Shown here piece after piece: positions 31,947-48,715 of a DNA stretch of 64,000 nt. The DNA comes from a virus (taxonomy: Duplodnaviria > Caudoviricetes), in the IMG/VR virus record IMGVR_UViG_3300005611_000007, positions 32,001 to 96,000 of that record; one strand, 5' to 3'. The position numbers and the translations under genes were made by a program. Within the stretch, counting starts at the first letter, position 1; every line of letters begins with the position of its first letter. The notes under the pieces are model-generated. The model did no database searches. It saw only the letters and a list, made by a program, of their open reading frames with translations, and was not told where the DNA came from.

Positions 31947-32091
31947 GGTGTCCTCCTAAACAGTTGCATACTCCGCAACCGCATTTTTCTGATTTATCTT
32001 TCATGCCTATACCGACATTTTCAATGCATACAGAATCATAACAGTGACACCTATGACCGCAGTCTTCACAATATCTAATCTCACCAATCAC
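31915..32091 (-). CDS. Cys-rich metallothionein-like peptide (58 aa)
   Basis: GTG start overlapping the upstream stop; CEDCGHRCHC..C..CGCGVCNC. Confidence 0.6.
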   Translation of the reverse strand: MIGEIRYCEDCGHRCHCYDSVCIENVGIGMKDKSEKCGCGVCNCLGGHHGRESGETKD

Positions 32092-38524: not shown

Positions 38525-39610
38525 TCAATCTAAGTCTAATGGATTTTTTGGCTTTTCAATTTTACCTTGTAGAGCCATTTTAAAATGTTTCAAGCTTTTA
38601 TGGGCGCTTTTCATTAATCTACCTTTATCGATAGAAGATTTTTGTTTATTATATACTGTCATAAATTGTTGTGCATCTCTACTAGAAACTTGTGATGACG
38701 TACCGTCTAAGAAGTTTACTTTATTACCATTTAGAGAAATTGCTTTCCTCATTTGCATAACAAAGTTAGAATCAGAGGATACATCATCTTCTTTCTTTGG
38801 CCGTCCACGAGCTTCATCAATTTCTACTTCTTCTTTCATCGCTTGTTTTGTAGCAGTTGCATACATAACATCTTTCCAACGATCGCCATAACGTTTTTTC
38901 AGATCACCACTGCTTTTCTTCATACCTTTAACAATTTCTTCACGCTTCTTCATCTGAACATCAGACATTTCATGAAGCGGTGACAATGAATCTCTGACTT
39001 GCGCTTTCAATTTAGGACCAAAAGTTGTCCCCTTTTCCCATTCCGCGTATGCTTGAGAAGGACTAATTTTTCTAACTTTCATCAAAGAATGAATTTTAGA
39101 AACTGCCTTTTTTACTGCTGAATCATGAGCGAGTTTAAGTGTTTTTGGTTCTTCATCAAGGTCAACTTCTTCTTTTGCCATCATTGTACGAGCATCGTCC
39201 ATTGATGGTTTAGTGTCGATCTTGTCAGGTTTATCACTTAACTCATCATCTTTCTTTTTCTTTTTCTTTTTGTCGTTCTTACCGTCGCCATCCATATCGT
39301 TCTTTTGAGCATCGGTCATTTCATCTTCGTCATCTTCCATATCATCATCGTCATTATCATCGTTCTCTTTGACCTTGGTGGCTTCTTTCATTGCCTTCAT
39401 TACGGCTTTACGACGATTGTGTAGATACTCATCTGAACTATCTACATCACCATCGTTATCAATGTCTTTGTCTTTACGATCAGCATGAGAACCCTTTAAT
39501 GCCTTCGCATCTACAGGATCTAACGCTTCTTTCTTGCTTTTACCCGTCATAATTTCTGTGACGGCTTTAACAAGATCATCCGGGCTATTAAAGAGATTCT
39601 TAGGGAACAT
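38525..39610 (-). CDS. putative prohead core/internal head protein
   Basis: DIDNDGDVD motif, low complexity, LDEE/LHE/IDE cleavage-like sites. Confidence 0.65.
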   Translation of the reverse strand: MFPKNLFNSPDDLVKAVTEIMTGKSKKEALDPVDAKALKGSHADRKDKDIDNDGDVDSSDEYLHNRRKAVMKAMKEATKVKENDDNDDDDMEDDEDEMTDAQKNDMDGDGKNDKKKKKKKDDELSDKPDKIDTKPSMDDARTMMAKEEVDLDEEPKTLKLAHDSAVKKAVSKIHSLMKVRKISPSQAYAEWEKGTTFGPKLKAQVRDSLSPLHEMSDVQMKKREEIVKGMKKSSGDLKKRYGDRWKDVMYATATKQAMKEEVEIDEARGRPKKEDDVSSDSNFVMQMRKAISLNGNKVNFLDGTSSQVSSRDAQQFMTVYNKQKSSIDKGRLMKSAHKSLKHFKMALQGKIEKPKNPLDLD

Positions 39611-39611
39611 T

Positions 39612-39905
39612 TTATTTCTTCTTTTTACTATGCATGTGGGATTCGGATTTGGTGATTTCAATGTCTTTAGTAGAAACCTTCTCTGTTAGACCATTGCGAA
39701 AAGCAACTGTATACCACTCAATTTGACCATTATCATCTGGATCCGCATGTTGTTCAGAGATAGTAATACCCTCGCCATATTCTTCATGTACTACATGAGT
39801 AGCACAATCATGCATGGTATCTTTAACATCTTCGCCGTCTTTTTTCTCTTCTATGGTTTCTTCACCAAGAAAACGACGACCTGTGGGAGTTAGAATATAA
39901 GACAT
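39612..39905 (-). CDS. conserved late protein
   Basis: HDCATHV.H..YG.G; TATAAATA at 39931..39938. Confidence 0.65.
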   Translation of the reverse strand: MSYILTPTGRRFLGEETIEEKKDGEDVKDTMHDCATHVVHEEYGEGITISEQHADPDDNGQIEWYTVAFRNGLTEKVSTKDIEITKSESHMHSKKKK

Positions 39906-39916
39906 TTTTATTTCCT

Positions 39917-40195
39917 CTATGTTTTTCTATTATTTATATTATCCTCACTCTGATTGACTAGATAGTCTCTAGCAGAGTTTAGATGGTCTCCTGCTACTGC
40001 AATTTTGTTTGTTAACCAAGTTGGTAGTGAACTCTCTTTGTCCATAGCCTGTAGTACTTCTTGTAGTTGTTGAGCATCTTCAGCGAGAGACTGTAGTTTA
40101 GTAATCATACTAGCAACATCAGTATGTCCGTCTTCTTGTAGATAACTGTACCCATCCCTAAACAGACTTCTTATAGTGTTTTCCAGACTTTTCAT
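39917..40195 (-). CDS. putative internal head protein
   Basis: MKSLE...LQE|DGH; LP.W..NKI. Confidence 0.6.
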   Translation of the reverse strand: MKSLENTIRSLFRDGYSYLQEDGHTDVASMITKLQSLAEDAQQLQEVLQAMDKESSLPTWLTNKIAVAGDHLNSARDYLVNQSEDNINNRKT

Positions 40196-40502
40196 ATTTT
40201 TCTAACCTTAATACTAGTTTTGTTGAACCTTTTATCAATCTGTGAAATACCATTTCTGGTATATAAAATTCATCACCTACATGCATTTCAGTTGGTAACT
40301 CATCTTCATATTGTAATGACCAACCTTCACCTTCTAATACATCTATGTGTCTATTCTCTTTGTCACGGTGCCAAACTAAATCATCTTCATTTGGGTTATC
40401 AAATGTTCTAATATCACCATTATCAGTATATATTACCAAAAGAAGGATCCTCCGCCACTTAACCCAAGGCTCTTTGCATAATAAGGAAGACGACAAGCCC
40501 AA
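40158..40502 (-). CDS. cupin-like protein (true start probably near 40440)
   Basis: LVWHRD..R..WxLQ..LP..IP..FHRLIKG. Confidence 0.7.
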   Translation of the reverse strand: MGLSSSLLCKEPWVKWRRILLLVIYTDNGDIRTFDNPNEDDLVWHRDKENRHIDVLEGEGWSLQYEDELPTEMHVGDEFYIPEMVFHRLIKGSTKLVLRLEKYEKSGKHYKKSV

Positions 40503-40966
40503 TACGCCGCTGTTGTTTTATCATTTTGCATATGACATCTATGTCTTGCTGCAAATGACTTTCGTGCTCCAGGATCATTGAGTTTTACCTTTAGCCCTGT
40601 TGTATCTCCCCAAGTCACTTTCTTAATATTCTTAGTTGATGGATCTCTCACATAAACATAATACTTCTTAGGTCCACCTCTTTTTGGTTTGTTTAATTCT
40701 GGTGTCTCTTCTTCATCTATCATAGGAAAGTCTAGAGGAACATCAACACCATCTACTTCAGCAAAATTTCCAATATCACTATTAAGAAAATCTTCGTCAA
40801 GAGGTGTAAGTTCTAGACCCTCTTCTTCATATCTTCTACGAACTTCATTAATTACTTCAAAGTATTTTTCTGAACCATATCTAAAAATAGATTCGGCAAA
40901 AGGAATATCTTTTGCAATATGATACTTAATAGATTCTGAAATTAAATGATTCTTAAACTTCACCAT
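40433..40966 (-). CDS. putative internal head protein
   Basis: MVKFKNHLISE; RKSFAARH.C..YWAC. Confidence 0.7.
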   Translation of the reverse strand: MVKFKNHLISESIKYHIAKDIPFAESIFRYGSEKYFEVINEVRRRYEEEGLELTPLDEDFLNSDIGNFAEVDGVDVPLDFPMIDEEETPELNKPKRGGPKKYYVYVRDPSTKNIKKVTWGDTTGLKVKLNDPGARKSFAARHRCHMQNDKTTAAYWACRLPYYAKSLGLSGGGSFFW

Positions 40967-43900
40967 CTTCCTCCTCCTCATCTACTAAAACTGAAGGATG
41001 CAAAGCAAATCCTGCTTGAGTCTTAATACCTAGATCTTTAGCGAAATAGGTAACACCAATACCAGAAGTCGTTGCCATCTCAAAAGATTCATTTAAGTCT
41101 TTTTTAAATAAGTTTTCAAACTCTTCATTTCTACTTGTCATTCTATTCTTTGTACGGGCATCTCTAAGTCTTGCTGCATCCATTTCGCGATCATGTTTAG
41201 TTTTCAGTGCCTCTTTCTCGCTAGTGTGCCGTTGTTTAACCGTATCCATTGCATCACCTTCTTTTATTCTCTTACCTTCATCATCATACTTACCAGATTT
41301 CTTTTTAGCAATAGCAATAGCAGCTTGTTGCGCCCATGACTTTGCTTCGTTCTGTATAGAGAACTTCTCATCAATGGATAGTTCTTCTTTACGAACATTC
41401 TTCCACAAATCTGCATCAGCAGTTGTTCTTGTCTTGCCGCCGGTGATAAATGAATTCACACGAGCATATGCCCATTGTTGTGGTGTAGTACCTGGACGAT
41501 GACCTGTACGCCACGCCGCCATACCTCTATCATATACTTTCTTTAGAATACTATAAGAGATACCAGACTTCTCTGCTTTCTTTTTCAACCCTTCTAAAGA
41601 TTTCTCTTCAAGATACATATATTGCACAAACTCTTCATTGATGCCTCTAACAGACTTAGCTTGACTAATCCAGTTTTGTGCAAATTTATTACGTGGTTCT
41701 TGTTTCATCCATGCAGATATTTTTTTGTAAACAGAGGTAGAAGCGGCTTCAAAATTAGAACCTTCTGAATTATCTACAATAAAGAATTTGGATTTAAAAC
41801 TATTCTGAAACTTACCTAAATTGTTCTGTACAGACTTCCACATTTTTGTCACTTTTTCATCAGGAAGACTTCTATCTCGTTCACGATTTCTTTTAAGTGC
41901 TGTATCTTCATCTGTGTTGACAAAAATCATAGCAGTTTCATAACCTATAGCTTCTAGTTGTTCTTTTTGTTTTTGAATTTTTTGATAATCTTTACCAGTA
42001 CCATCAATTACTAAACCAAGTCTACCATTTAGATATAAAGATTGTTGTTTTTTAGTAAGAGCCTTAGCGCGATCTCGTATAGTTTGTCCTTTTGTTGAGT
42101 AGATATCTTCTGGAGTTGTATTCAATCCAGCATTTTTTAAACCTAATTCAAAAATTGGATCCGAGTTTACTAATTTGAAACCTAACCCTACTAAACCAGT
42201 TCTACCTACAATAAACGATTTACCAGAACCAGGACCACCTGCTAAAAATACTGCTTTGAATATACCAGGATCGTTTAAACCTTCATCAAGTTCATATGAT
42301 TCGTATTTAATCACGGGGCTTGTTGTAGTGAAATTTTTCTTTCTCATAATAGTTTTATGAACTACATCTAGTGTGCCATCTTTATCTACTTTAATAGCAA
42401 TAGGTAAATTCAAATCTTTTTGAATATCTTTTAATACTACTTCAGCATTAGGATATTTTTTTATATTGACTGCTTTCTTTTTAGCAATCTTTTTAAATAA
42501 CCCCTGTAGTTCAGACACTTTTATTTCAGGTTTATTTCTATCATCGTTCATTCTATCAGCGAAGTGACGTGAAAATGAAATGTCTACACCAAACTTATCT
42601 AACAATCTATCACCAAATTTTTCTAAGTCAGAAAGCTGATTGGCTGTGACCGTTTCACCAAACATCTGCTTATACTTCTTAGTATGCTTAGATGGTTTGG
42701 TTTCAGCACCAAAATCGCCGGGAGCTGGCTTATATGCCGCTGGATTATCATCATCCATTTTAGCACTTTTTTTGAAATGCGTATCTCTAGCATCCTTTGT
42801 AGACTTTTTCAAACCAGAATAATATTTCTTAGGTTGAGTTCCTTCTTTGTCTTTAACATCAGGATCTTGGGCGACTTCTTCCCATTTAACTTCTTTCTTC
42901 TTAAAGTCAGATAGTTTCTTTAATTGTTTCTTTCCAACATGAGCAATTTTCCATCCACTTTTAGCTAGACTATTTGCATAATCTCTAACTTCAGGTGCTT
43001 TTAACATTTTAACTTGGTCAGTTTTTGGTCCTGCTTTTATCTTTACTGTCATGTAATTTGGTTTATTGGTTACAGGACGAATTTCTACAGTATCTGCACC
43101 TTTCTTTAACATAATAGAACTTATTTCATCTAATTGTTCTAGAATGTCTAAATCGATTTGTTCTTCTAATGGCGCACCAGGATTTTGCGCTCTTAGACGG
43201 AACGCTTTTACAATATCTGCCCTTTCTACTCTCTCAATATCATGAATGTTTTCTTCTGGATTTCTAATAACTTTACGAAGCTTGCTACGAATAGTAGAGG
43301 CACTAGGTGCATCCATATAGACCGTAGGCATACCTTCTACGTCTACTTTGAAATAAAGTTCATTGATATAGTTATCAAACTGTTCATTTTTGTTAAGATT
43401 ACGAAATCTTTCTTGTTCTTTTTTTACAATTTTTGGAAGCAGTCTTTTTGCTATTGTAGAAACTAATGGTAGTTTCTTTGCTACTAATCTATCAATACCA
43501 ATCTTTTCTGAAGGTGATAGTGTTCTATATTGTTTGCCTTTCTCACCAGCAACTCTTTTCTTTAATAATAAGATTGCTGCTTTTCTTGATCTTTTAACTA
43601 ACTGCGCTCTTCTTGCCATTCTACGTAGAGCAATTTTTCTTTTTCTTGCAATAATAGGTGCAAGTCGTCTCATCTGTAAACGTTTTTTCATTCTTTGTTG
43701 TAATGTTAAAGGTTTTCTTTCCTCTGACATTAAATCGTCATTACATGTAATAGGACCTTCTACGGACCAATCAATATCATCTTGCCAATCGTCATCCATT
43801 ATTTCATCAAATAATTCATCCAGTTCTTCATCGGAAATATCTTCCCATTCTTCTTCAACAGACTCCATTACAGACCTAATAGTGTCATAAACTTTCTTCT

Positions 43901-44402
43901 TATCAGTTTCTTTTAGTTTGGATGGCATCCCTTGTTTGAATGTGTCATAATCGCCTGCTTGTGCAATACCTCGAAGTTTAGAAGCAGACATACCAGCAAC
44001 ACCTTCAGCGTCTGGATCTCGTTCTCCAGCAGACACAACTTCAATCTTATCAAAGTTGTAATCTTTACCGTTATATTTTGCTAAAAATGATTTGAACTCA
44101 GGAACACGATCACTACCAGCAACCAGAATAACTTCTGTGTGTCCCATCTTCTCTAGTTCTTGCATCACCTGGATGATAGTCTTGGCAGAAGACTTAGTGA
44201 CGGCTTTGCCAAACGACTTCTTGGCAATATCAATTTTCGTATTGTATGGAAGAGGATCTTTCTTAGCGTTCTGTGTGTGGCTAAGAAATATATGTGGCAT
44301 CGCCCCACGACGTTTAGCCTCGCTGTAAACTTTATCAGCAAGTTTTTCATGTCCGATTGTTGGGGGATTCATGCGCCCAAAAGCGAAAACTGTCTTACTC
44401 AT
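40953..44402 (-). CDS. multidomain protein: HIGH nucleotidyltransferase, HFxDR domain, P-loop kinase, C-terminal helical domain
   Basis: FGRMNPPTIGH, AGSDR, MSASK; FSRHFADR; AGGPGSGKS..DGTG..RN.ER; VYDRG.AAW..WA.ARVNSF. Confidence 0.85.
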   Translation of the reverse strand: MSKTVFAFGRMNPPTIGHEKLADKVYSEAKRRGAMPHIFLSHTQNAKKDPLPYNTKIDIAKKSFGKAVTKSSAKTIIQVMQELEKMGHTEVILVAGSDRVPEFKSFLAKYNGKDYNFDKIEVVSAGERDPDAEGVAGMSASKLRGIAQAGDYDTFKQGMPSKLKETDKKKVYDTIRSVMESVEEEWEDISDEELDELFDEIMDDDWQDDIDWSVEGPITCNDDLMSEERKPLTLQQRMKKRLQMRRLAPIIARKRKIALRRMARRAQLVKRSRKAAILLLKKRVAGEKGKQYRTLSPSEKIGIDRLVAKKLPLVSTIAKRLLPKIVKKEQERFRNLNKNEQFDNYINELYFKVDVEGMPTVYMDAPSASTIRSKLRKVIRNPEENIHDIERVERADIVKAFRLRAQNPGAPLEEQIDLDILEQLDEISSIMLKKGADTVEIRPVTNKPNYMTVKIKAGPKTDQVKMLKAPEVRDYANSLAKSGWKIAHVGKKQLKKLSDFKKKEVKWEEVAQDPDVKDKEGTQPKKYYSGLKKSTKDARDTHFKKSAKMDDDNPAAYKPAPGDFGAETKPSKHTKKYKQMFGETVTANQLSDLEKFGDRLLDKFGVDISFSRHFADRMNDDRNKPEIKVSELQGLFKKIAKKKAVNIKKYPNAEVVLKDIQKDLNLPIAIKVDKDGTLDVVHKTIMRKKNFTTTSPVIKYESYELDEGLNDPGIFKAVFLAGGPGSGKSFIVGRTGLVGLGFKLVNSDPIFELGLKNAGLNTTPEDIYSTKGQTIRDRAKALTKKQQSLYLNGRLGLVIDGTGKDYQKIQKQKEQLEAIGYETAMIFVNTDEDTALKRNRERDRSLPDEKVTKMWKSVQNNLGKFQNSFKSKFFIVDNSEGSNFEAASTSVYKKISAWMKQEPRNKFAQNWISQAKSVRGINEEFVQYMYLEEKSLEGLKKKAEKSGISYSILKKVYDRGMAAWRTGHRPGTTPQQWAYARVNSFITGGKTRTTADADLWKNVRKEELSIDEKFSIQNEAKSWAQQAAIAIAKKKSGKYDDEGKRIKEGDAMDTVKQRHTSEKEALKTKHDREMDAARLRDARTKNRMTSRNEEFENLFKKDLNESFEMATTSGIGVTYFAKDLGIKTQAGFALHPSVLVDEEEEDGEV

Positions 44403-44438
44403 TTTATCTCCAGGGTTTTCCTTAGACTTACCTGAACA

Positions 44439-44446
44439 TATTTATA
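44439..44446 (-). promoter_or_regulatory. T4 late promoter
   Basis: TATAAATA 36 nt before the 1149-aa gene. Confidence 0.75.
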
Positions 44447-44450
44447 AAAA

Positions 44451-44762
44451 TCAGACGTTGAAACTTTCTCCACATCCACACTGGGCTTTACTATTCGGAT
44501 TGACCACCTTTAGATAAGAACCACCGAGTTCTGTTACATAATCTACAGTAGAACCAATAACGTAAAACTCAGCCAGATTGTCAAGTACAATAATGTCATC
44601 TATCAACACGCCTTCTTCTACAGTATCAGCGAAGTCCCATTTGTATTGAAACCCACTACAACCGCCGCTGTCTACCGATAAATGAATGTACTTTTTATTG
44701 TGTGTCTTTTTCATGTTCGTCAGATACGTCTTCGCTGACTCTGTTATCTGAACTGGGTACAT
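44451..44762 (-). CDS. iscA: A-type Fe-S carrier (IscA/HesB)
   Basis: GGCSG, NPN...CGCGESF. Confidence 0.92.
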   Translation of the reverse strand: MYPVQITESAKTYLTNMKKTHNKKYIHLSVDSGGCSGFQYKWDFADTVEEGVLIDDIIVLDNLAEFYVIGSTVDYVTELGGSYLKVVNPNSKAQCGCGESFNV

Positions 44763-44834
44763 ACTTATACTCCTCCGGTACTGAACCCCAACCTACAATA
44801 CGAAACTATTCTCTTTCTGTGTATCCTCTATTGT

Positions 44835-46076
44835 TTACTTCTGCCATCCTTTTATCACATCCGCTGAAAAGTTTGCTCTACTAAACTCCATACGATCTAC
44901 AAGTTTCACGGCACCACCTTCTAATCGATCAATTGCAACATAACCTTCTTGATTGGTCACTTTAAATCCTGTGGATGTTCGTAAAAATGTTGCCAGTGAA
45001 CTTGTTTGATTCAGTTTATTGACAACCATTTCCTTTGCCTTTGTCAGAAGAATCACAACATCATAGATAGTATACAGATTTTTTTGATGGTTGTCAAAAT
45101 AAATCATCAACTTTTTCATCTTTTCCAATTGATCTTGTTGACCTTTTGGTGACTTTTTCTTTGATGCTTCTTTCTCATAGTATTCTCTAAAATATTTTAC
45201 TAATTCGTTTACATGAGCCCGAGAACTAACAATAGATTTGCCAGCACGTACCTTGGAGTTATTGAATGCTTTGAGACGAATTAGAAACTCGTCCTCTCCA
45301 GCAATATCGTTTAGTGCAGCCGCTGGTAATTTTTGGAATAATTTACCAGCCTGAGATAGAATACTGGTCAGTTGTTTTGTCTCTGTCTCTGTGAAAGTGG
45401 CGGTACCAGATACGTCTTTATATGTAGCATCGTCCATCCACACTGAAGGCACAGATTTCATCTTATTGACAATACCTTTACCAAAAGAAGATTTCATACT
45501 CTGGATTGTCTTGCCAGTATATGTAGTATGCCAGACAATACCAATCTTTGCTCTACGAATTGTCTTTGCTAGAGGAGTGCCCATAGGAACTGCATAGACG
45601 ATAGTGTTTGGTTGGAATGTAAGATAGTCTTGACCTTCAATCTTTTCTTTTGATAGGTCTTCACTGGTAAACATCAAATCGCCTTGATAGACACCAGACT
45701 TGATACCTAACTTGGAGAATTCTGTAAAGGCGACAACGAACTTACTGGTAAGTTCAGCAGACATGCCTTCTTTCTTGATATCGTCAACAGACTTAAACAT
45801 CTGCGGATTGATATTGAATAGACCTTTTTTCGCTACAAAGAACTTACCATCTTCTGGATCCACACCTGCAAAAATGGCAGGAGCTCCATCCCACTTAGTT
45901 GTAATGTTAATAGATTTAGAAGAGGAACCACTAAGCATATCACGAACGCTACGGAGAAAAAGAATAGCTCGACGTGTTCCAGTAACCCCTTCATTAAAGA
46001 CGAGATCTTCGATATGCTCCAAGTGAACATTTTTGCCCTCTTTGGATTCTGTTAGATATTGTTTAAAATTAATCAT
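44835..46076 (-). CDS. conserved T4-like protein (DUF6267-like) with ligase-type motifs
   Basis: MINFKQYLTE; KNxHLEH; TKWDG; QGDL; EGYV; VKL. Confidence 0.75.
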   Translation of the reverse strand: MINFKQYLTESKEGKNVHLEHIEDLVFNEGVTGTRRAILFLRSVRDMLSGSSSKSINITTKWDGAPAIFAGVDPEDGKFFVAKKGLFNINPQMFKSVDDIKKEGMSAELTSKFVVAFTEFSKLGIKSGVYQGDLMFTSEDLSKEKIEGQDYLTFQPNTIVYAVPMGTPLAKTIRRAKIGIVWHTTYTGKTIQSMKSSFGKGIVNKMKSVPSVWMDDATYKDVSGTATFTETETKQLTSILSQAGKLFQKLPAAALNDIAGEDEFLIRLKAFNNSKVRAGKSIVSSRAHVNELVKYFREYYEKEASKKKSPKGQQDQLEKMKKLMIYFDNHQKNLYTIYDVVILLTKAKEMVVNKLNQTSSLATFLRTSTGFKVTNQEGYVAIDRLEGGAVKLVDRMEFSRANFSADVIKGWQK

Positions 46077-46826
46077 TTAAAAAACAATCATATCTCTAGA
46101 TTTAGTAGGTTTATCAGTAACTACAAGTCTACCAGCAGAATCTCCTTTTGAAGGAGATTTACCATAAATTTTAGGTATCCCATTTTTGTCAGAGGCTTCT
46201 GGATCAAACATTTGATCCACGCGTCTTGCCCTCAATCTAAAGAATAAATCTTTACTTTCAGAGTATTTGTTAGCCTCTATTGCTTTTCCGTTTATTGTTA
46301 ATTTGCCATTTTTAAAGGAACCTTTAACATCCATAGGACCTATATACATATAGTCTATAGGACCTCCCATAGCTTCATTACCTATAACAAGTAATTTCTT
46401 ATCTTTGTCGTTTAACTTAGCAAAAGTATCAGGAACCTTATCACCAACTTTTAAACCTTTTTTCTTATGATTATCATAAGCCGCTCTAAAAAATCTAGCT
46501 CCAATACCAGGAATAATTTCTTCAATTCCTCGAAGACCACCTCCCGCTAAAGATGGTGCTGAAGGACCTTTCATAGAAAAATTTAACACTCCTGAAGAAG
46601 TATATACCTTTACATCCGTATAAGGTTCTGAACCAGATCTTTGTCTACCAGAAAACTTTTCCGCTTTTATGACATTTTTAACAGTATCTTCTTTTGTTAT
46701 TAAATCAAAAGGTTTTTCATTATTTTGTTTGAAAGACGTATTTATTAATTCTACAAATGCGTTTTCTTGTCTCTCAGCAGATTGTCCTGCTTCTTGTAGG
46801 TCTAGAAACTGCTTAAATCTAATCAT
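46077..46826 (-). CDS. putative PD-(D/E)xK nuclease-like head protein
   Basis: MIRFKQFLDLQE; PYTD...FSMK; TATAAATA at 46883..46890. Confidence 0.55.
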   Translation of the reverse strand: MIRFKQFLDLQEAGQSAERQENAFVELINTSFKQNNEKPFDLITKEDTVKNVIKAEKFSGRQRSGSEPYTDVKVYTSSGVLNFSMKGPSAPSLAGGGLRGIEEIIPGIGARFFRAAYDNHKKKGLKVGDKVPDTFAKLNDKDKKLLVIGNEAMGGPIDYMYIGPMDVKGSFKNGKLTINGKAIEANKYSESKDLFFRLRARRVDQMFDPEASDKNGIPKIYGKSPSKGDSAGRLVVTDKPTKSRDMIVF

Positions 46827-47271
46827 TGATAACCCCGTAGTGTCCTGTTTCGTCCATTGAATAGACAATTCGCTTTATACCATATTTATAAAGACAAGAC
46901 ATACAACCAATGCAAGGCTTACTATTACCCCAAATCCATCCTTCACTATTACCAGATGGACGCTTTGCTCTTGCAACATAAAGAGTCATTCCAGCCAATT
47001 CTTTCTTTGTAGGATCTAAATCACTACCAACCGCCTTCAAACCATTATATACAGCATTCGTTTCAGCGTGCCAATAGATCGCTTCATCGTTCTTAGCATG
47101 ATTTGCTTGAAACGTGTGGGACTTGTACATATTCATACCATAAGAGATAATTTTGTTCTTATAAACAAGAGAGGCAGCCAAACGACTGCCTCCCGTTGCA
47201 TCTAGATCCCTAGCCATAATGAACAAGTTGTTCAGAAACTTTAGGTCACGATCGCTCATTCTCACTCTCAT
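46819..47271 (-). CDS. zinc-dependent cytidine/dCMP deaminase-like protein
   Basis: HAE...SKPCIGC. Confidence 0.85.
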   Translation of the reverse strand: MRVRMSDRDLKFLNNLFIMARDLDATGGSRLAASLVYKNKIISYGMNMYKSHTFQANHAKNDEAIYWHAETNAVYNGLKAVGSDLDPTKKELAGMTLYVARAKRPSGNSEGWIWGNSKPCIGCMSCLYKYGIKRIVYSMDETGHYGVIND

Positions 47272-47607: not shown

Positions 47608-47789
47608 GCTCTATACTCCTTGTTTTTGATGAACAGTCTACGAAACCATTCATGTTTCTCTGAGTTCTTTTCAAAGATATTCTGTGATCCATCATTCCAC
47701 TTGACCATGATAGAGTCTTCAGACTCTCTTACAGTGACGAGTTGGGGGAGAGTCCGATAGAACTCTCCCTCTGAAAACCCGTTACTCAT
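47604..47789 (-). CDS. hypothetical protein
   Basis: start MSNGF via ATGA overlap. Confidence 0.5.
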   Translation of the reverse strand: MSNGFSEGEFYRTLPQLVTVRESEDSIMVKWNDGSQNIFEKNSEKHEWFRRLFIKNKEYRA

Positions 47790-48715
47790 GCCATCTCGAC
47801 AGCAAGGGCGAGAGCCTCTTGCTTCTTCTTGACACCACCACCGAACCAAGCGGAGTTCATCCGATTGTCCGAGTTACGACCCATCTGATGGTCAACATGG
47901 TAGGTAACACCGTTGTACAACTGCCAGAACGTTCCTTCACCCATCTCAGCACCAGGCTGAGTGTCAAGGATGTCTAGGACTGCGGTAGCAGACTTCGACC
48001 GTTCCTTACGCTTGGCTTCACCAAGAACAGGAAACAGACGCTCAAGATATTCTACCTTTGACTCTTCAGTGAACCGTTTCGAAGCGATAAACTCAGCTTG
48101 CTTCTTATACTCGGTCAACTTGAACGAGGCGATACCCATCGTTTCCTTAACCTCTTCAGCGTTGAACTGAGTCCGATGGGAAACCTTGACACCATTTTTA
48201 CTACCCTCACTAAGAGAAAGTGTCAGAGTGTTGTTACAAACCACTCGAATCGGAGTGAACCGAACATCAATGCTCTTACCATACATATGAGGGTTAGAGA
48301 ACAGCAGATAAGAATCAACACGATCCTTACCAAACAGTTCAAACGACTCATCCTTTACCTTAGCAAGAGCCCACACCATCTGACCACCACGAAGTGAACC
48401 AGCAGTATGCATCTCCATGTTACCTTCACTAACGAAGTCGGCGAAGAAACCAAACGCTTCAGCGTTCTGAGTCTCACACCAATCGTCACCAACGACATCG
48501 AGAATCTTGTTGTCACTGGAACGAACCAGAGCAGACTTACCAACAGCGACCTTTTCGCCATTGACTTCAGCAAACGCCGGAATCTTCTCTACGGTCCAGT
48601 CAAGACCAGCTTCGTAAAGCATTTGTTCTGGAGTCAGGTCGGGAAGAACCTTCTTACCCAGACCATGCCACGGAACTTCACCAGCGTAAGCCATCGTTTC
48701 AACCATATGAGCCAT
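47786..48715 (-). CDS. DUF932/DUF945-family protein
   Basis: PWHGLG, AGLDW.V, TAGSL.GG, TPIRVVCNNTL. Confidence 0.9.
   Translation of the reverse strand: MAHMVETMAYAGEVPWHGLGKKVLPDLTPEQMLYEAGLDWTVEKIPAFAEVNGEKVAVGKSALVRSSDNKILDVVGDDWCETQNAEAFGFFADFVSEGNMEMHTAGSLRGGQMVWALAKVKDESFELFGKDRVDSYLLFSNPHMYGKSIDVRFTPIRVVCNNTLTLSLSEGSKNGVKVSHRTQFNAEEVKETMGIASFKLTEYKKQAEFIASKRFTEESKVEYLERLFPVLGEAKRKERSKSATAVLDILDTQPGAEMGEGTFWQLYNGVTYHVDHQMGRNSDNRMNSAWFGGGVKKKQEALALAVEMA

Follow-up and report, generated by a model that had tools for sequence, protein, structure and literature searches.

The locus described here lies in a 64,000-nucleotide stretch of viral DNA (hereafter the window; positions 32,001 to 96,000 of IMG/VR record IMGVR_UViG_3300005611_000007), and searches of the whole genome covered the 126,920-bp contig, which is approximately 70% complete. 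The source is a T4-like marine myovirus; among cultured phages, those closest to it are Methylophilales phage Melnitz and Pelagibacter phage HTVC008M, which both belong to the Kyanoviridae. Five co-oriented genes, designated A to E, occupy the minus strand, and all window features given below are on that strand. Gene A (46077..46826; 249 amino acids from its ATG) is predicted to encode a short leader peptide followed by an MspI/HinP1I-like endonuclease of the PD-(D/E)xK type. It abuts gene B (44835..46076; 413 amino acids), a leader followed by a DUF6267 domain which we predict to be an RNA-ligase-like covalent nucleotidyltransferase without an OB domain. Gene C (44451..44762; 103 amino acids) encodes a HesB/IscA-type Fe-S assembly protein (PF01521, E 1.8e-11). 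Gene D (40953..44402; 1149 amino acids) is a modular polyprotein without an N-terminal leader, and its end is overlapped by the start of gene E (40433..40966; 177 amino acids), which consists of a leader and a domain matched by phrog_7595.

A preliminary description, made from the sequence alone, had placed two late boxes at 46883 and 44439, and both are present on the coding strand. These T4-type late-promoter-like octamers (TATAAATA) lie upstream of A-B (46883..46890, 56 nt before the ATG at 46826 and within the 3' end of a dCMP-deaminase-like open reading frame (ORF)) and upstream of D-E (44439..44446, 36 nt before the ATG at 44402, in the C-D intergenic gap). Six of the seven copies of the octamer in the window are on the coding strand, most of them 25-56 nt before the start of an ORF, a placement that T4-type late promoters would show. 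With these boxes, A-B and D-E would each be made late, as two units.

The three N-terminal peptides singled out by the preliminary description are indeed present: MIRFKQFLDLQE followed by AG in A (46791..46826), MINFKQYLTE in B (46047..46076) and MVKFKNHLISE in E (40934-40966, from the ATG at 40966). All three have F at position 4, F, Y or H at position 7, L at position 8 and a Glu at position 10, 11 or 12, and the consensus of the leader is M-x-x-F-K-x-[FY]-[LI]-x-E. When a loose regular expression for the leader was run over the whole 127-kb genome it returned A, B and E together with one chance match inside a head-scaffold ORF, and no others; by position weight matrix the leader of B scored 24.3, the highest of the 1018 ATG starts in the genome. 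The leaders are disordered in the structural models (residues 1-14 of A and 1-12 of B). In the capsid-targeting sequence of phage T4, mutagenesis has assigned residues 4 and 7 to targeting and residues 8 and 10 to processing (PMC9026906). The corresponding T4 N-termini are MKTYQEFIAE for ipII and ipIII, MKTFKEF for ipI, MAKINELLRE for gp24 and MELITELFDE for Alt.

Relatives were sampled as 80 IMG/VR loci fetched around DUF6267. The leader expression had 77 matches in these loci by comparison with 1.8±1.4 after shuffling of the N-termini; 69 of the 77 stood at the first ATG of an ORF on the DUF6267 strand, and the opposite strand had none. Among 96 ten-residue leaders from the DUF6267 and gene A families that matched a strict expression, F4 was present in 91, Y/F7 in 93 and L/I8 in 93, with E10, although positions 4, 7, 8 and 10 were required by the selecting expression and these figures therefore describe the motif and do not test it. 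Signals not fixed in this way were K2 (38/96), S/T3 (61/96) and K5 (59/96), and each residue of the T4 peptide ranks among the commonest at its position in this set. The leader fronts unrelated families, including DUF6267, the gene A family, stand-alone kinases, HAD phosphatases and many proteins without a family. The majority of DUF6267 representatives begin with it, as B does; it is nearly universal in the gene A family, in which an [LIVMFY]xE-(AG/SK/GG) junction was found in 113 of the 120 members listed; and 36 of 40 related nucleotidyltransferase (D-type) proteins carry it. Which leader-bearing gene fills the slot directly upstream of DUF6267 differs among HTVC008M, Melnitz and the present phage. 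A subset of DUF6267 proteins (P0209, P0215, P0234, P0242 and P0265) has another N-terminus, M-[RKQ]-x-x-E-[IL] and then a stretch rich in Arg and Lys, which likewise ends in [LIV]xE before the DUF6267 domain and may be the targeting signal of another phage group.

A gp21-type prohead protease is encoded in the genome (PF03420, E 1.1e-40; contig coordinates G000:C1:110101-110745) and is adjoined by gp22 and gp23. Beside it, outside the window, a 241-amino-acid head-core gene (G000:C1:111106-111831) starts with a relative of the cargo leader, MKTLKQLRKIQE and then AG; in gp23 of this phage, LLGE followed by AAP occurs approximately 60 residues in, where T4 gp23 is cut. Predicted cleavage sites also recur at the joints of fused proteins. 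In 18 of 20 fusions the internal DUF6267 domain is preceded by [LIVM]xE, 3-8 residues before a conserved KNxHxxHxED, and two of the 20 keep a complete internal leader. Every kinase module, whether N-terminal (after the leader) or internal, is preceded by [LIV]xE and then G-x-x-DP-x-IFKA; E7 and G8 are invariant in an alignment of the kinase modules. In D the site reads L705-D-E707 followed by G and is a predicted internal prohead-protease site (42282..42290) directly before the kinase module. In Melnitz gene 18 the E domain forms the C-terminal part of a D-type polyprotein, with a leader remnant lying internally before it, and the E domain occupies this position in about 15 of the 80 loci. The junction analysis supports the predicted cutting of the polyproteins at [LIV]xE. 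Two metagenomic proteins, P0355 and P0361, are fusions of a leader, a Nudix hydrolase and a gene-A-type nuclease, with LFE followed by AG at the junction.

Published virion proteomes of relatives provide indirect evidence on the fate of leader-bearing proteins. The core cytidylyltransferase T4-GC190 was detected in S-SM1 virions with 25 peptide counts (Sullivan et al., 2010), and mass spectrometry of S-CREM2 virions detected a cytidylyltransferase (gp154), an S-adenosylmethionine (SAM) hydrolase (gp6), a kinase (gp14) and two small proteins, gp13 and gp15. Of these S-CREM2 proteins, gp6 begins MKDFDSFLEE, gp13 MKDLHSFLTE, gp14 VKRFDAFLTE and gp154 MKNFSSFLTE; the motif also occurs in S-CREM2 gp12, behind a longer N-terminus, and in none of 34 neighbouring S-CREM2 genes whose products were undetected in virions. 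Ser/Thr kinases have been reported in S-CRM01 virions (PMC10665884), and S-CRM01 gp130, annotated as a Ser/Thr kinase, begins MISFDQFLSE and is presumably the kinase detected. The leaders thus behave like the T4 capsid-targeting sequences to which the preliminary description had likened them, by virtue of the same four determinant positions, their abundance in related loci, their retention at junctions and their overlap with the S-CREM2 virion proteins.

Gene A belongs to a family of approximately 907 members and had no Pfam or PHROG match. Its AlphaFold (AF2) model has a predicted local distance difference test (pLDDT) score of 82.4, and the best structural matches were MspI (Z 7.9 over 168 residues), HinP1I (7.2 over 162), I-Ssp6803I (7.0) and HhaI (6.8); the top seven were all nucleases of the restriction-endonuclease fold. 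Foldseek also gave HinP1I as top match, with weak E-values. Residues E21, D71, S84 and K86 are invariant in 76 sequences; D71 and S84-x-K86 are the candidate catalytic D and S-x-K residues. The nuclease assignment made in the preliminary description was upheld, and on the basis of its model we class A as a restriction-endonuclease-like nuclease of the MspI/HinP1I branch. Every 4-bp palindrome occurs in the phage genome, GCGC and CCGG at the expected frequency, and so nothing can be inferred from avoidance as to the specificity of A. MspI, HinP1I and HhaI, which are monomeric type IIP enzymes, have their whole-protein fold in common with A (Z 6.8-7.9, 151-168 residues aligned). The candidate D...x-K catalytic signature of A has S84 in place of the customary acidic residue, a position taken by N or Q in MspI and HinP1I. 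Identity of A to the three enzymes is, however, merely 5-9% in the structural alignments, and by comparison with type IIP restriction enzymes A lacks a methyltransferase partner and carries a head-targeting leader.

The B protein is a full-length DUF6267 (PF19782, E 1.5e-103), a domain that is very abundant in marine viruses (at least 8,000 clusters at 90% identity were matched) and corresponds to cyanophage core gene T4-GC71. No paper mentioning DUF6267 or giving it a fold was found in the literature. The AF2 model of B, built on 113 sequences from relatives 33-52% identical to it, was confident (pLDDT 93.6; predicted template modelling score 0.90). Compared with 48,161 PDB representative chains, its top eight matches were all RNA ligases (Z 7.1-8.6, 181-208 residues aligned), namely Naegleria NgrRnl, T. 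brucei REL1, fungal Trl1 (three entries), T4 Rnl2 (two) and T4 Rnl1; DNA ligases come next in the ranking, at Z 5.6-6.7. The motifs TKWDG, QGDL, EGYV and VKL, which the preliminary description had read in the 413-residue protein as a ligase series, all stand where it put them, and its expectation of a ligase-like fold was borne out by the model, by the RNA ligases at the head of the ranking and by the conservation of motifs I, IV and V. Across the 113 relatives K61, D63, G64, Q131, G132, D133, E377, G378 and K391 are invariant or nearly so. Motif I (K61-W-D63-G64) is kept in at least 90% of the sequences; in motifs IV-V, E377 and R395 are nearly invariant, G378 and K391 are invariant, and the second motif V Lys is replaced by V393. 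A helical insert of about 130 residues (230-356) separates motifs IIIa and IV, only some 20 residues remain after motif V in the model, which leaves no OB domain or motif VI, and the family has an invariant N-terminal H-x-x-H-x-E-D motif.

Sequence comparison alone did not reach the ligases. Single-sequence searches of A, B and D against solved structures returned nothing useful, and a profile search with B gave low-complexity matches only. The hhalign comparisons of the DUF6267 profile with T4 Rnl1 and Rnl2 were not significant (probability <1%) and aligned the motif IV and motifs IV-V segments alone; with Rnl1 the sole aligned stretch was EGYVA...K (motifs IV-V), at 42% identity over 19 residues. 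Because of the fold matches, the conserved ligase motifs, the helical insert and the missing OB domain, we file B as a putative new RNA-ligase-like family of the covalent nucleotidyltransferase superfamily and place it in no named Rnl family; its modelled architecture, with the insert and no OB domain, is RNA-ligase-like rather than DNA-ligase-like. Part of the insert (residues 253-328) resembled YqeY/GatB-type helical domains at Z 6.3-6.8, which is below the level trusted for helical folds, and the match was not used; such domains bind tRNA. In many cyanophages the DUF6267 homologue matches over residues 16-200 only, and in S-PM2 (L089, 2526-4305) a 192-amino-acid DUF6267 ORF is followed by a 390-amino-acid 'cytidyltransferase'. 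The ligase-like gene may have decayed or been rearranged in cyanophage lineages with a short DUF6267.

Analysis of D recovered the three parts that had been read in the 1149-residue protein, a HIGH nucleotidyltransferase, an HFxDR module and a GGPGSGKS kinase, and added a DUF5824 domain. Residues 1-200 (43803..44402) are the nucleotidyltransferase, matched by phrog_3041 'cytidyltransferase' at E 2.4e-89, in which G17, H18, G96, D98, R99, G126, R128, D129 and S139 are invariant and the HIGH signatures T15-x-G17-H18 and S139-A-S-K-x-R144 (TxGH ... SASKMR in D) are conserved. Three fused relatives (P0143, P0236 and P0248) exceeded the PF01467 cut-off, and the NCBIfam matches were all sub-threshold. 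An acidic and then a strongly basic segment (basic at approximately residues 230-330) leads to the HFxDR module (residues 581-700; 42303..42662; phrog_23027 and phrog_14518), which carries a conserved HFxDRxNDxRN and has H33, F34, R37, N39, D40, R42 and N43 among its invariant residues. No assignment for it came from a PDB profile search, from the protein Atlas or from scanning 12 members with Pfam; one member matched DUF4258 at E 0.066, which was not relied on. The P-loop kinase follows (residues 708-916; 41655..42281), with Pfam matches to AAA_33 (2.7e-8) and Zeta_toxin (3.4e-7) and profile matches in the PDB to adenylate kinase (4.5e-4), PSTK (5.7e-4), zeta toxin (1e-3) and T4 Pnk (3.7e-3). 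The T4 Pnk profile match spans residues 3-147, the whole kinase domain, and a pairwise match to T4 Pnk had an E-value of 0.02; the similarity to all four kinds of kinase is weak. DUF5824 (residues 916-998; 41409..41657; PF19141, E 2.9e-20) and a tail complete the protein, and a Pfam scan found no phosphatase domain in D. In relatives the modules of D and the E protein occur as separate leader-bearing genes or in differing orders of fusion.

The preliminary description had looked to conserved co-occurrence across related phages, and this was found: in 62 of the 80 loci the gene after B encodes the nucleotidyltransferase. DUF5824 is present in 37 of the 80, usually fused after the nucleotidyltransferase, and DUF6267 itself occurs in fusions with the kinase (P0129) and, in either order, with the nucleotidyltransferase. 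Leader-bearing HAD-family phosphatases (DxDxT) stand directly upstream of DUF6267 in two loci (L072:5608-6210 and L005:9384-10001), and the first of these showed no significant similarity to the phosphatase domain of T4 Pnk.

As several of these enzymes bear a T4-type head-address tag, it is probable that the host receives them by injection, together with the DNA. We lean, at slightly better than even confidence, towards the reading that A, B and E, and D in most relatives, are head cargo which enters the cell with the genome and processes or rejoins nucleic-acid ends as infection begins. Packaging and injection are well supported by comparison with relatives; for this particular phage we infer both, as we do cleavage, the biochemical purpose (RNA or DNA end repair, or salvage of nicotinamide adenine dinucleotide (NAD)) and every substrate. 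What the analysis shows directly are the motifs and modelled folds, the statistics of the leader, the sites at junctions, the synteny and a protease gene. In the mechanism that we propose, the decapeptide would lead each cargo protein into the scaffolding core of the prohead, where the gp21-type protease would cut behind the leader Glu and at the [LIV]xE sites that separate the modules in D and other polyproteins; the mature enzymes would remain in the head and enter the host along with the DNA. The cargo would comprise nuclease A, the RNA-ligase-like polynucleotide ligase B and, from D and E, the HIGH nucleotidyltransferase, the P-loop kinase and three further modules. At the very start of infection the kinase would heal and the ligase would seal broken ends, either in tRNA or other RNA cut by host defence nucleases or at nicks in the entering genome, and nuclease A would attack host nucleic acid. 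We think that healing and sealing is the job of this set; the ligase-kinase fusions, the nearby HAD phosphatases, the RNA-ligase-like fold and the lack of an OB domain all fit it.

Several results weigh against this reading and are gathered here. With regard to packaging, D starts directly at its nucleotidyltransferase and has no leader, as in four of 40 relatives, and its packaging is therefore the weakest point. In addition, 22 of 124 DUF6267 representatives start at the domain without a leader; the cyanophage form (T4-GC71) is leaderless and was not among the proteins detected in S-SM1, S-PM2 and Syn9 virions; and the authors of the S-CREM2 study noted that abundant proteins could co-purify with virions. 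The [LI]xE sites in D are at the level expected from composition (13 found, 11.3 expected), and for this reason the cleavage-site argument rests on their position and conservation and not on their number. The TATAAATA octamer is not enriched over the whole window (seven observed, 6.8 expected). With regard to function, B has no sequence match to the Pfam ligase families PF09414 and PF01068, PF19782 being its sole Pfam match; Foldseek with B gave weak E-values (0.03-0.5), mostly to ligases; and structural Z-scores of around 8, as obtained for both A and B, fall in a range for which the program cautions that folds may simply be common ones. Only about 10 of the 80 loci have the kinase module. 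The window holds no phosphatase or cyclic phosphodiesterase module, and a complete RNA end-healing set is therefore not present here. Finally, the nucleotidyltransferase of D matched the NMNAT family TIGR00482 at 16.3 bits against a cut-off of 112 (E 0.008) and PDB NadR at E 0.57, and its PPAT match was likewise weak.

The main rival to injected end repair, which we regard as fairly unlikely, is that DUF6267 is the phage's own DNA ligase, joining Okazaki fragments or repair nicks during replication in place of the gp30-type enzyme that marine T4-like phages are known to lack, the leader being secondary or otherwise used. The available 70% of the genome yielded neither an ATP- nor a NAD-dependent DNA ligase, nor a Pfam RNA_ligase (PF09414, PF01068 and PF01653), and HTVC008M, Melnitz and P-HM1 also lack both DNA-ligase families, while T4 has one. 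The DUF6267 gene lies at the end of the uvsX-gp41 replication block in the present phage and in relatives, it is a cyanophage core gene whose cyanophage copies are leaderless and undetected in virions, and DNA ligases do appear among the fold matches of B. Against this, B lacks the OB domain and motif VI that all DNA ligases and capping enzymes have, and RNA ligases outscore DNA ligases as matches (Z 8.0-8.6 versus 5.6-6.7). Many cyanophage homologues are the short ones, matching over residues 16-200 only; S-CRM01 has both a PF01068 ligase and DUF6267; and the leader is common in the DUF6267 family.

The preliminary description had also named a NadR fold as one possible outcome, beside Pnk or zeta folds, and this was not borne out, the NMNAT and NadR matches lying far under the family cut-offs. 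The corresponding alternative is that the nucleotidyltransferase and kinase of D form a NadR-like system, with NMN adenylyltransferase and ribosylnicotinamide kinase activities, salvaging NAD+ or another cofactor against NAD-depleting defences, with B acting on a nucleotide cofactor. Cofactor pathways typically combine a HIGH nucleotidyltransferase and a P-loop kinase, as in NadR, CoA synthase and FAD synthetase. The faint matches of D to NMNAT, PPAT and NadR point in the same direction, as do the fusions of Nudix hydrolases to gene A, and the cyanophage enzyme was read as an NMNAT homologue by the authors of PMC10665884. The NMNAT score of 16 bits is nevertheless to be set against a cut-off of 112; a kinase is found in about 10 of the 80 loci and the nucleotidyltransferase in 62; the best matches of the D kinase include the RNA-acting PSTK and T4 Pnk besides adenylate kinase; and the window has no nicotinamide phosphoribosyltransferase. 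A NadR-like role of D in NAD salvage is possible but poorly supported, and the alternative as a whole is in our judgement distinctly unlikely.

It is more improbable still that the proteins are packaged yet act inside the head, in scaffolding, in condensation of the DNA or in nick repair and end protection of the packaged genome. The T4 core proteins gp67, gp68 and IPIII do act in the head, D has its long, highly basic segment, and the phage's own head-core gene carries the related leader MKTLKQLRKIQE; but ligases and kinases need ATP, which is not expected in a filled capsid, and among the S-CREM2 cargo are a SAM hydrolase and kinases, whose activities are directed at the host. That the shared N-terminus is no capsid-targeting signal, and reflects instead a translation-initiation context or a tag of late genes for some other location, would suit its A/T-rich DNA and the family members that lack it but is very improbable, given that internal junctions, at which the start of translation plays no part, retain the [LIV]xE end alone, that the conserved positions are exactly the four T4 determinants, and that the leader coincides with S-CREM2 virion proteins detected by mass spectrometry.

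For the Kyanoviridae at large we tentatively extend the reading of the locus as injected cargo, in a form that we hold less likely than its narrower version: a portable T4-type decapeptide and [LIV]xE polyproteins would load interchangeable enzymes into the head around a core of DUF6267 and the nucleotidyltransferase, with kinase and HAD phosphatase as optional parts, as an injected heal-and-seal kit that undoes anticodon-nuclease or RNase defences before phage expression. The T4-like phages that infect cyanobacteria, SAR11 and methylotrophs rank with the most abundant marine viruses, and their injected non-DNA cargo is almost unknown. The leader together with the [LIV]xE junction rule would allow injected proteins to be predicted across thousands of metagenomic contigs, and the leader would explain why 'non-structural' enzymes such as the cytidylyltransferase are repeatedly found in cyanophage virion proteomes. 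DUF6267 gains a testable identity as a polynucleotide ligase, which bears on sealing in ligase-less phages or on how RNA-cutting defences are beaten. The leader could also be used to load proteins into the heads of marine phages, as the T4 capsid-targeting sequence is. We found no paper describing it in marine T4-like phages (cyanophages or pelagiphages), and no literature linking capsid-targeting sequences with cyanophages beyond a passing mention in a T4 review.

The surroundings of the locus include several further genes. Gene C has no leader and sits, unlike in most relatives, between DUF6267 and the nucleotidyltransferase gene; a homologue was present in just two of the 80 related loci. 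Upstream of A lies the dCMP-deaminase-like gene (PF00383; 46819-47271), whose 3' end holds the box for gene A, and further upstream of it a DUF932 protein of 309 amino acids (47786-48715). On the other side, a small ORF with a WHRD motif (40158-40502) also stands beside the cluster in Melnitz (gene 19, 49% identity). A very highly charged protein of 378 amino acids (38525-39661) has repeated EEV(D/E)(L/I)DE stretches, which are [LI]xE sites, and has segments in common with HTVC008M gp133 and Melnitz gene 21; it could be a further protease-processed internal head protein.

Among known systems, RNA repair enzymes are the closest to B. T4 Rnl1 and Rnl2, Trl1, REL1 and NgrRnl have in common with it the nucleotidyltransferase-domain fold and the order K-x-D-G, E-G-Y-V, K, and neither they nor B have a C-terminal OB domain. 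There is no significant sequence similarity between them, however, and B alone has the insert, the H-x-x-H-x-E-D motif and a single motif V Lys; it also bears a leader, and a HIGH nucleotidyltransferase is genetically coupled or fused to it. In T4 Pnk and Rnl1, which act against PrrC, in bacterial Pnkp and in fungal Trl1, a P-loop kinase is coupled or fused to a ligase-type enzyme, as here, and as in such heal-and-seal systems a HAD phosphatase stands beside DUF6267 in some relatives and the kinase aligns weakly to the kinase domain of T4 Pnk. By contrast with them, the window has no phosphatase or cyclic phosphodiesterase and the kinase is missing in most relatives; and the proteins here probably arrive ready-made instead of depending on early expression. 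We know of no RNA repair system that includes a HIGH nucleotidyltransferase, the constant partner here. NadR, like D, has a HIGH nucleotidyltransferase and a P-loop kinase in a single polypeptide, but in D the two domains are 500 residues and other modules apart, and the kinase is dispensable in most relatives.

As regards delivery, the ejection proteins of phiKZ-like phages and SPN3US and the Dar proteins of P1 resemble the present cargo in that a gp21-related protease cleaves many head proteins behind a Glu and the proteins are delivered to the host, although these belong to other phage lineages and use other signals; to our knowledge a set of ligase, nuclease and nucleotidyltransferase has not been described for them. 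The nearest parallel is with IPI, IPII, IPIII and Alt of T4, which have an N-terminal decapeptide with aromatic residues at positions 4 and 7, I or L at 8 and E at 10, as here (MKTYQEFIAE versus MINFKQYLTE). Also in common with the T4 internal proteins are the gp21 homologue, the late-promoter-like boxes and a leader carried by many unrelated and rapidly exchanged cargo genes, and the changing leader-bearing slot upstream of DUF6267 recalls the variable internal-protein loci of T-even phages. The present phage, unlike T4, is one of the marine Kyanoviridae. The T4 internal proteins are small and basic, whereas the cargo here would consist of enzymes and polyproteins of 250-1150 amino acids with internal [LIV]xE sites at which cuts are predicted. 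T4-type head targeting is already known; what is new is the modular enzyme set in marine phages, including a putative new ligase-like family.

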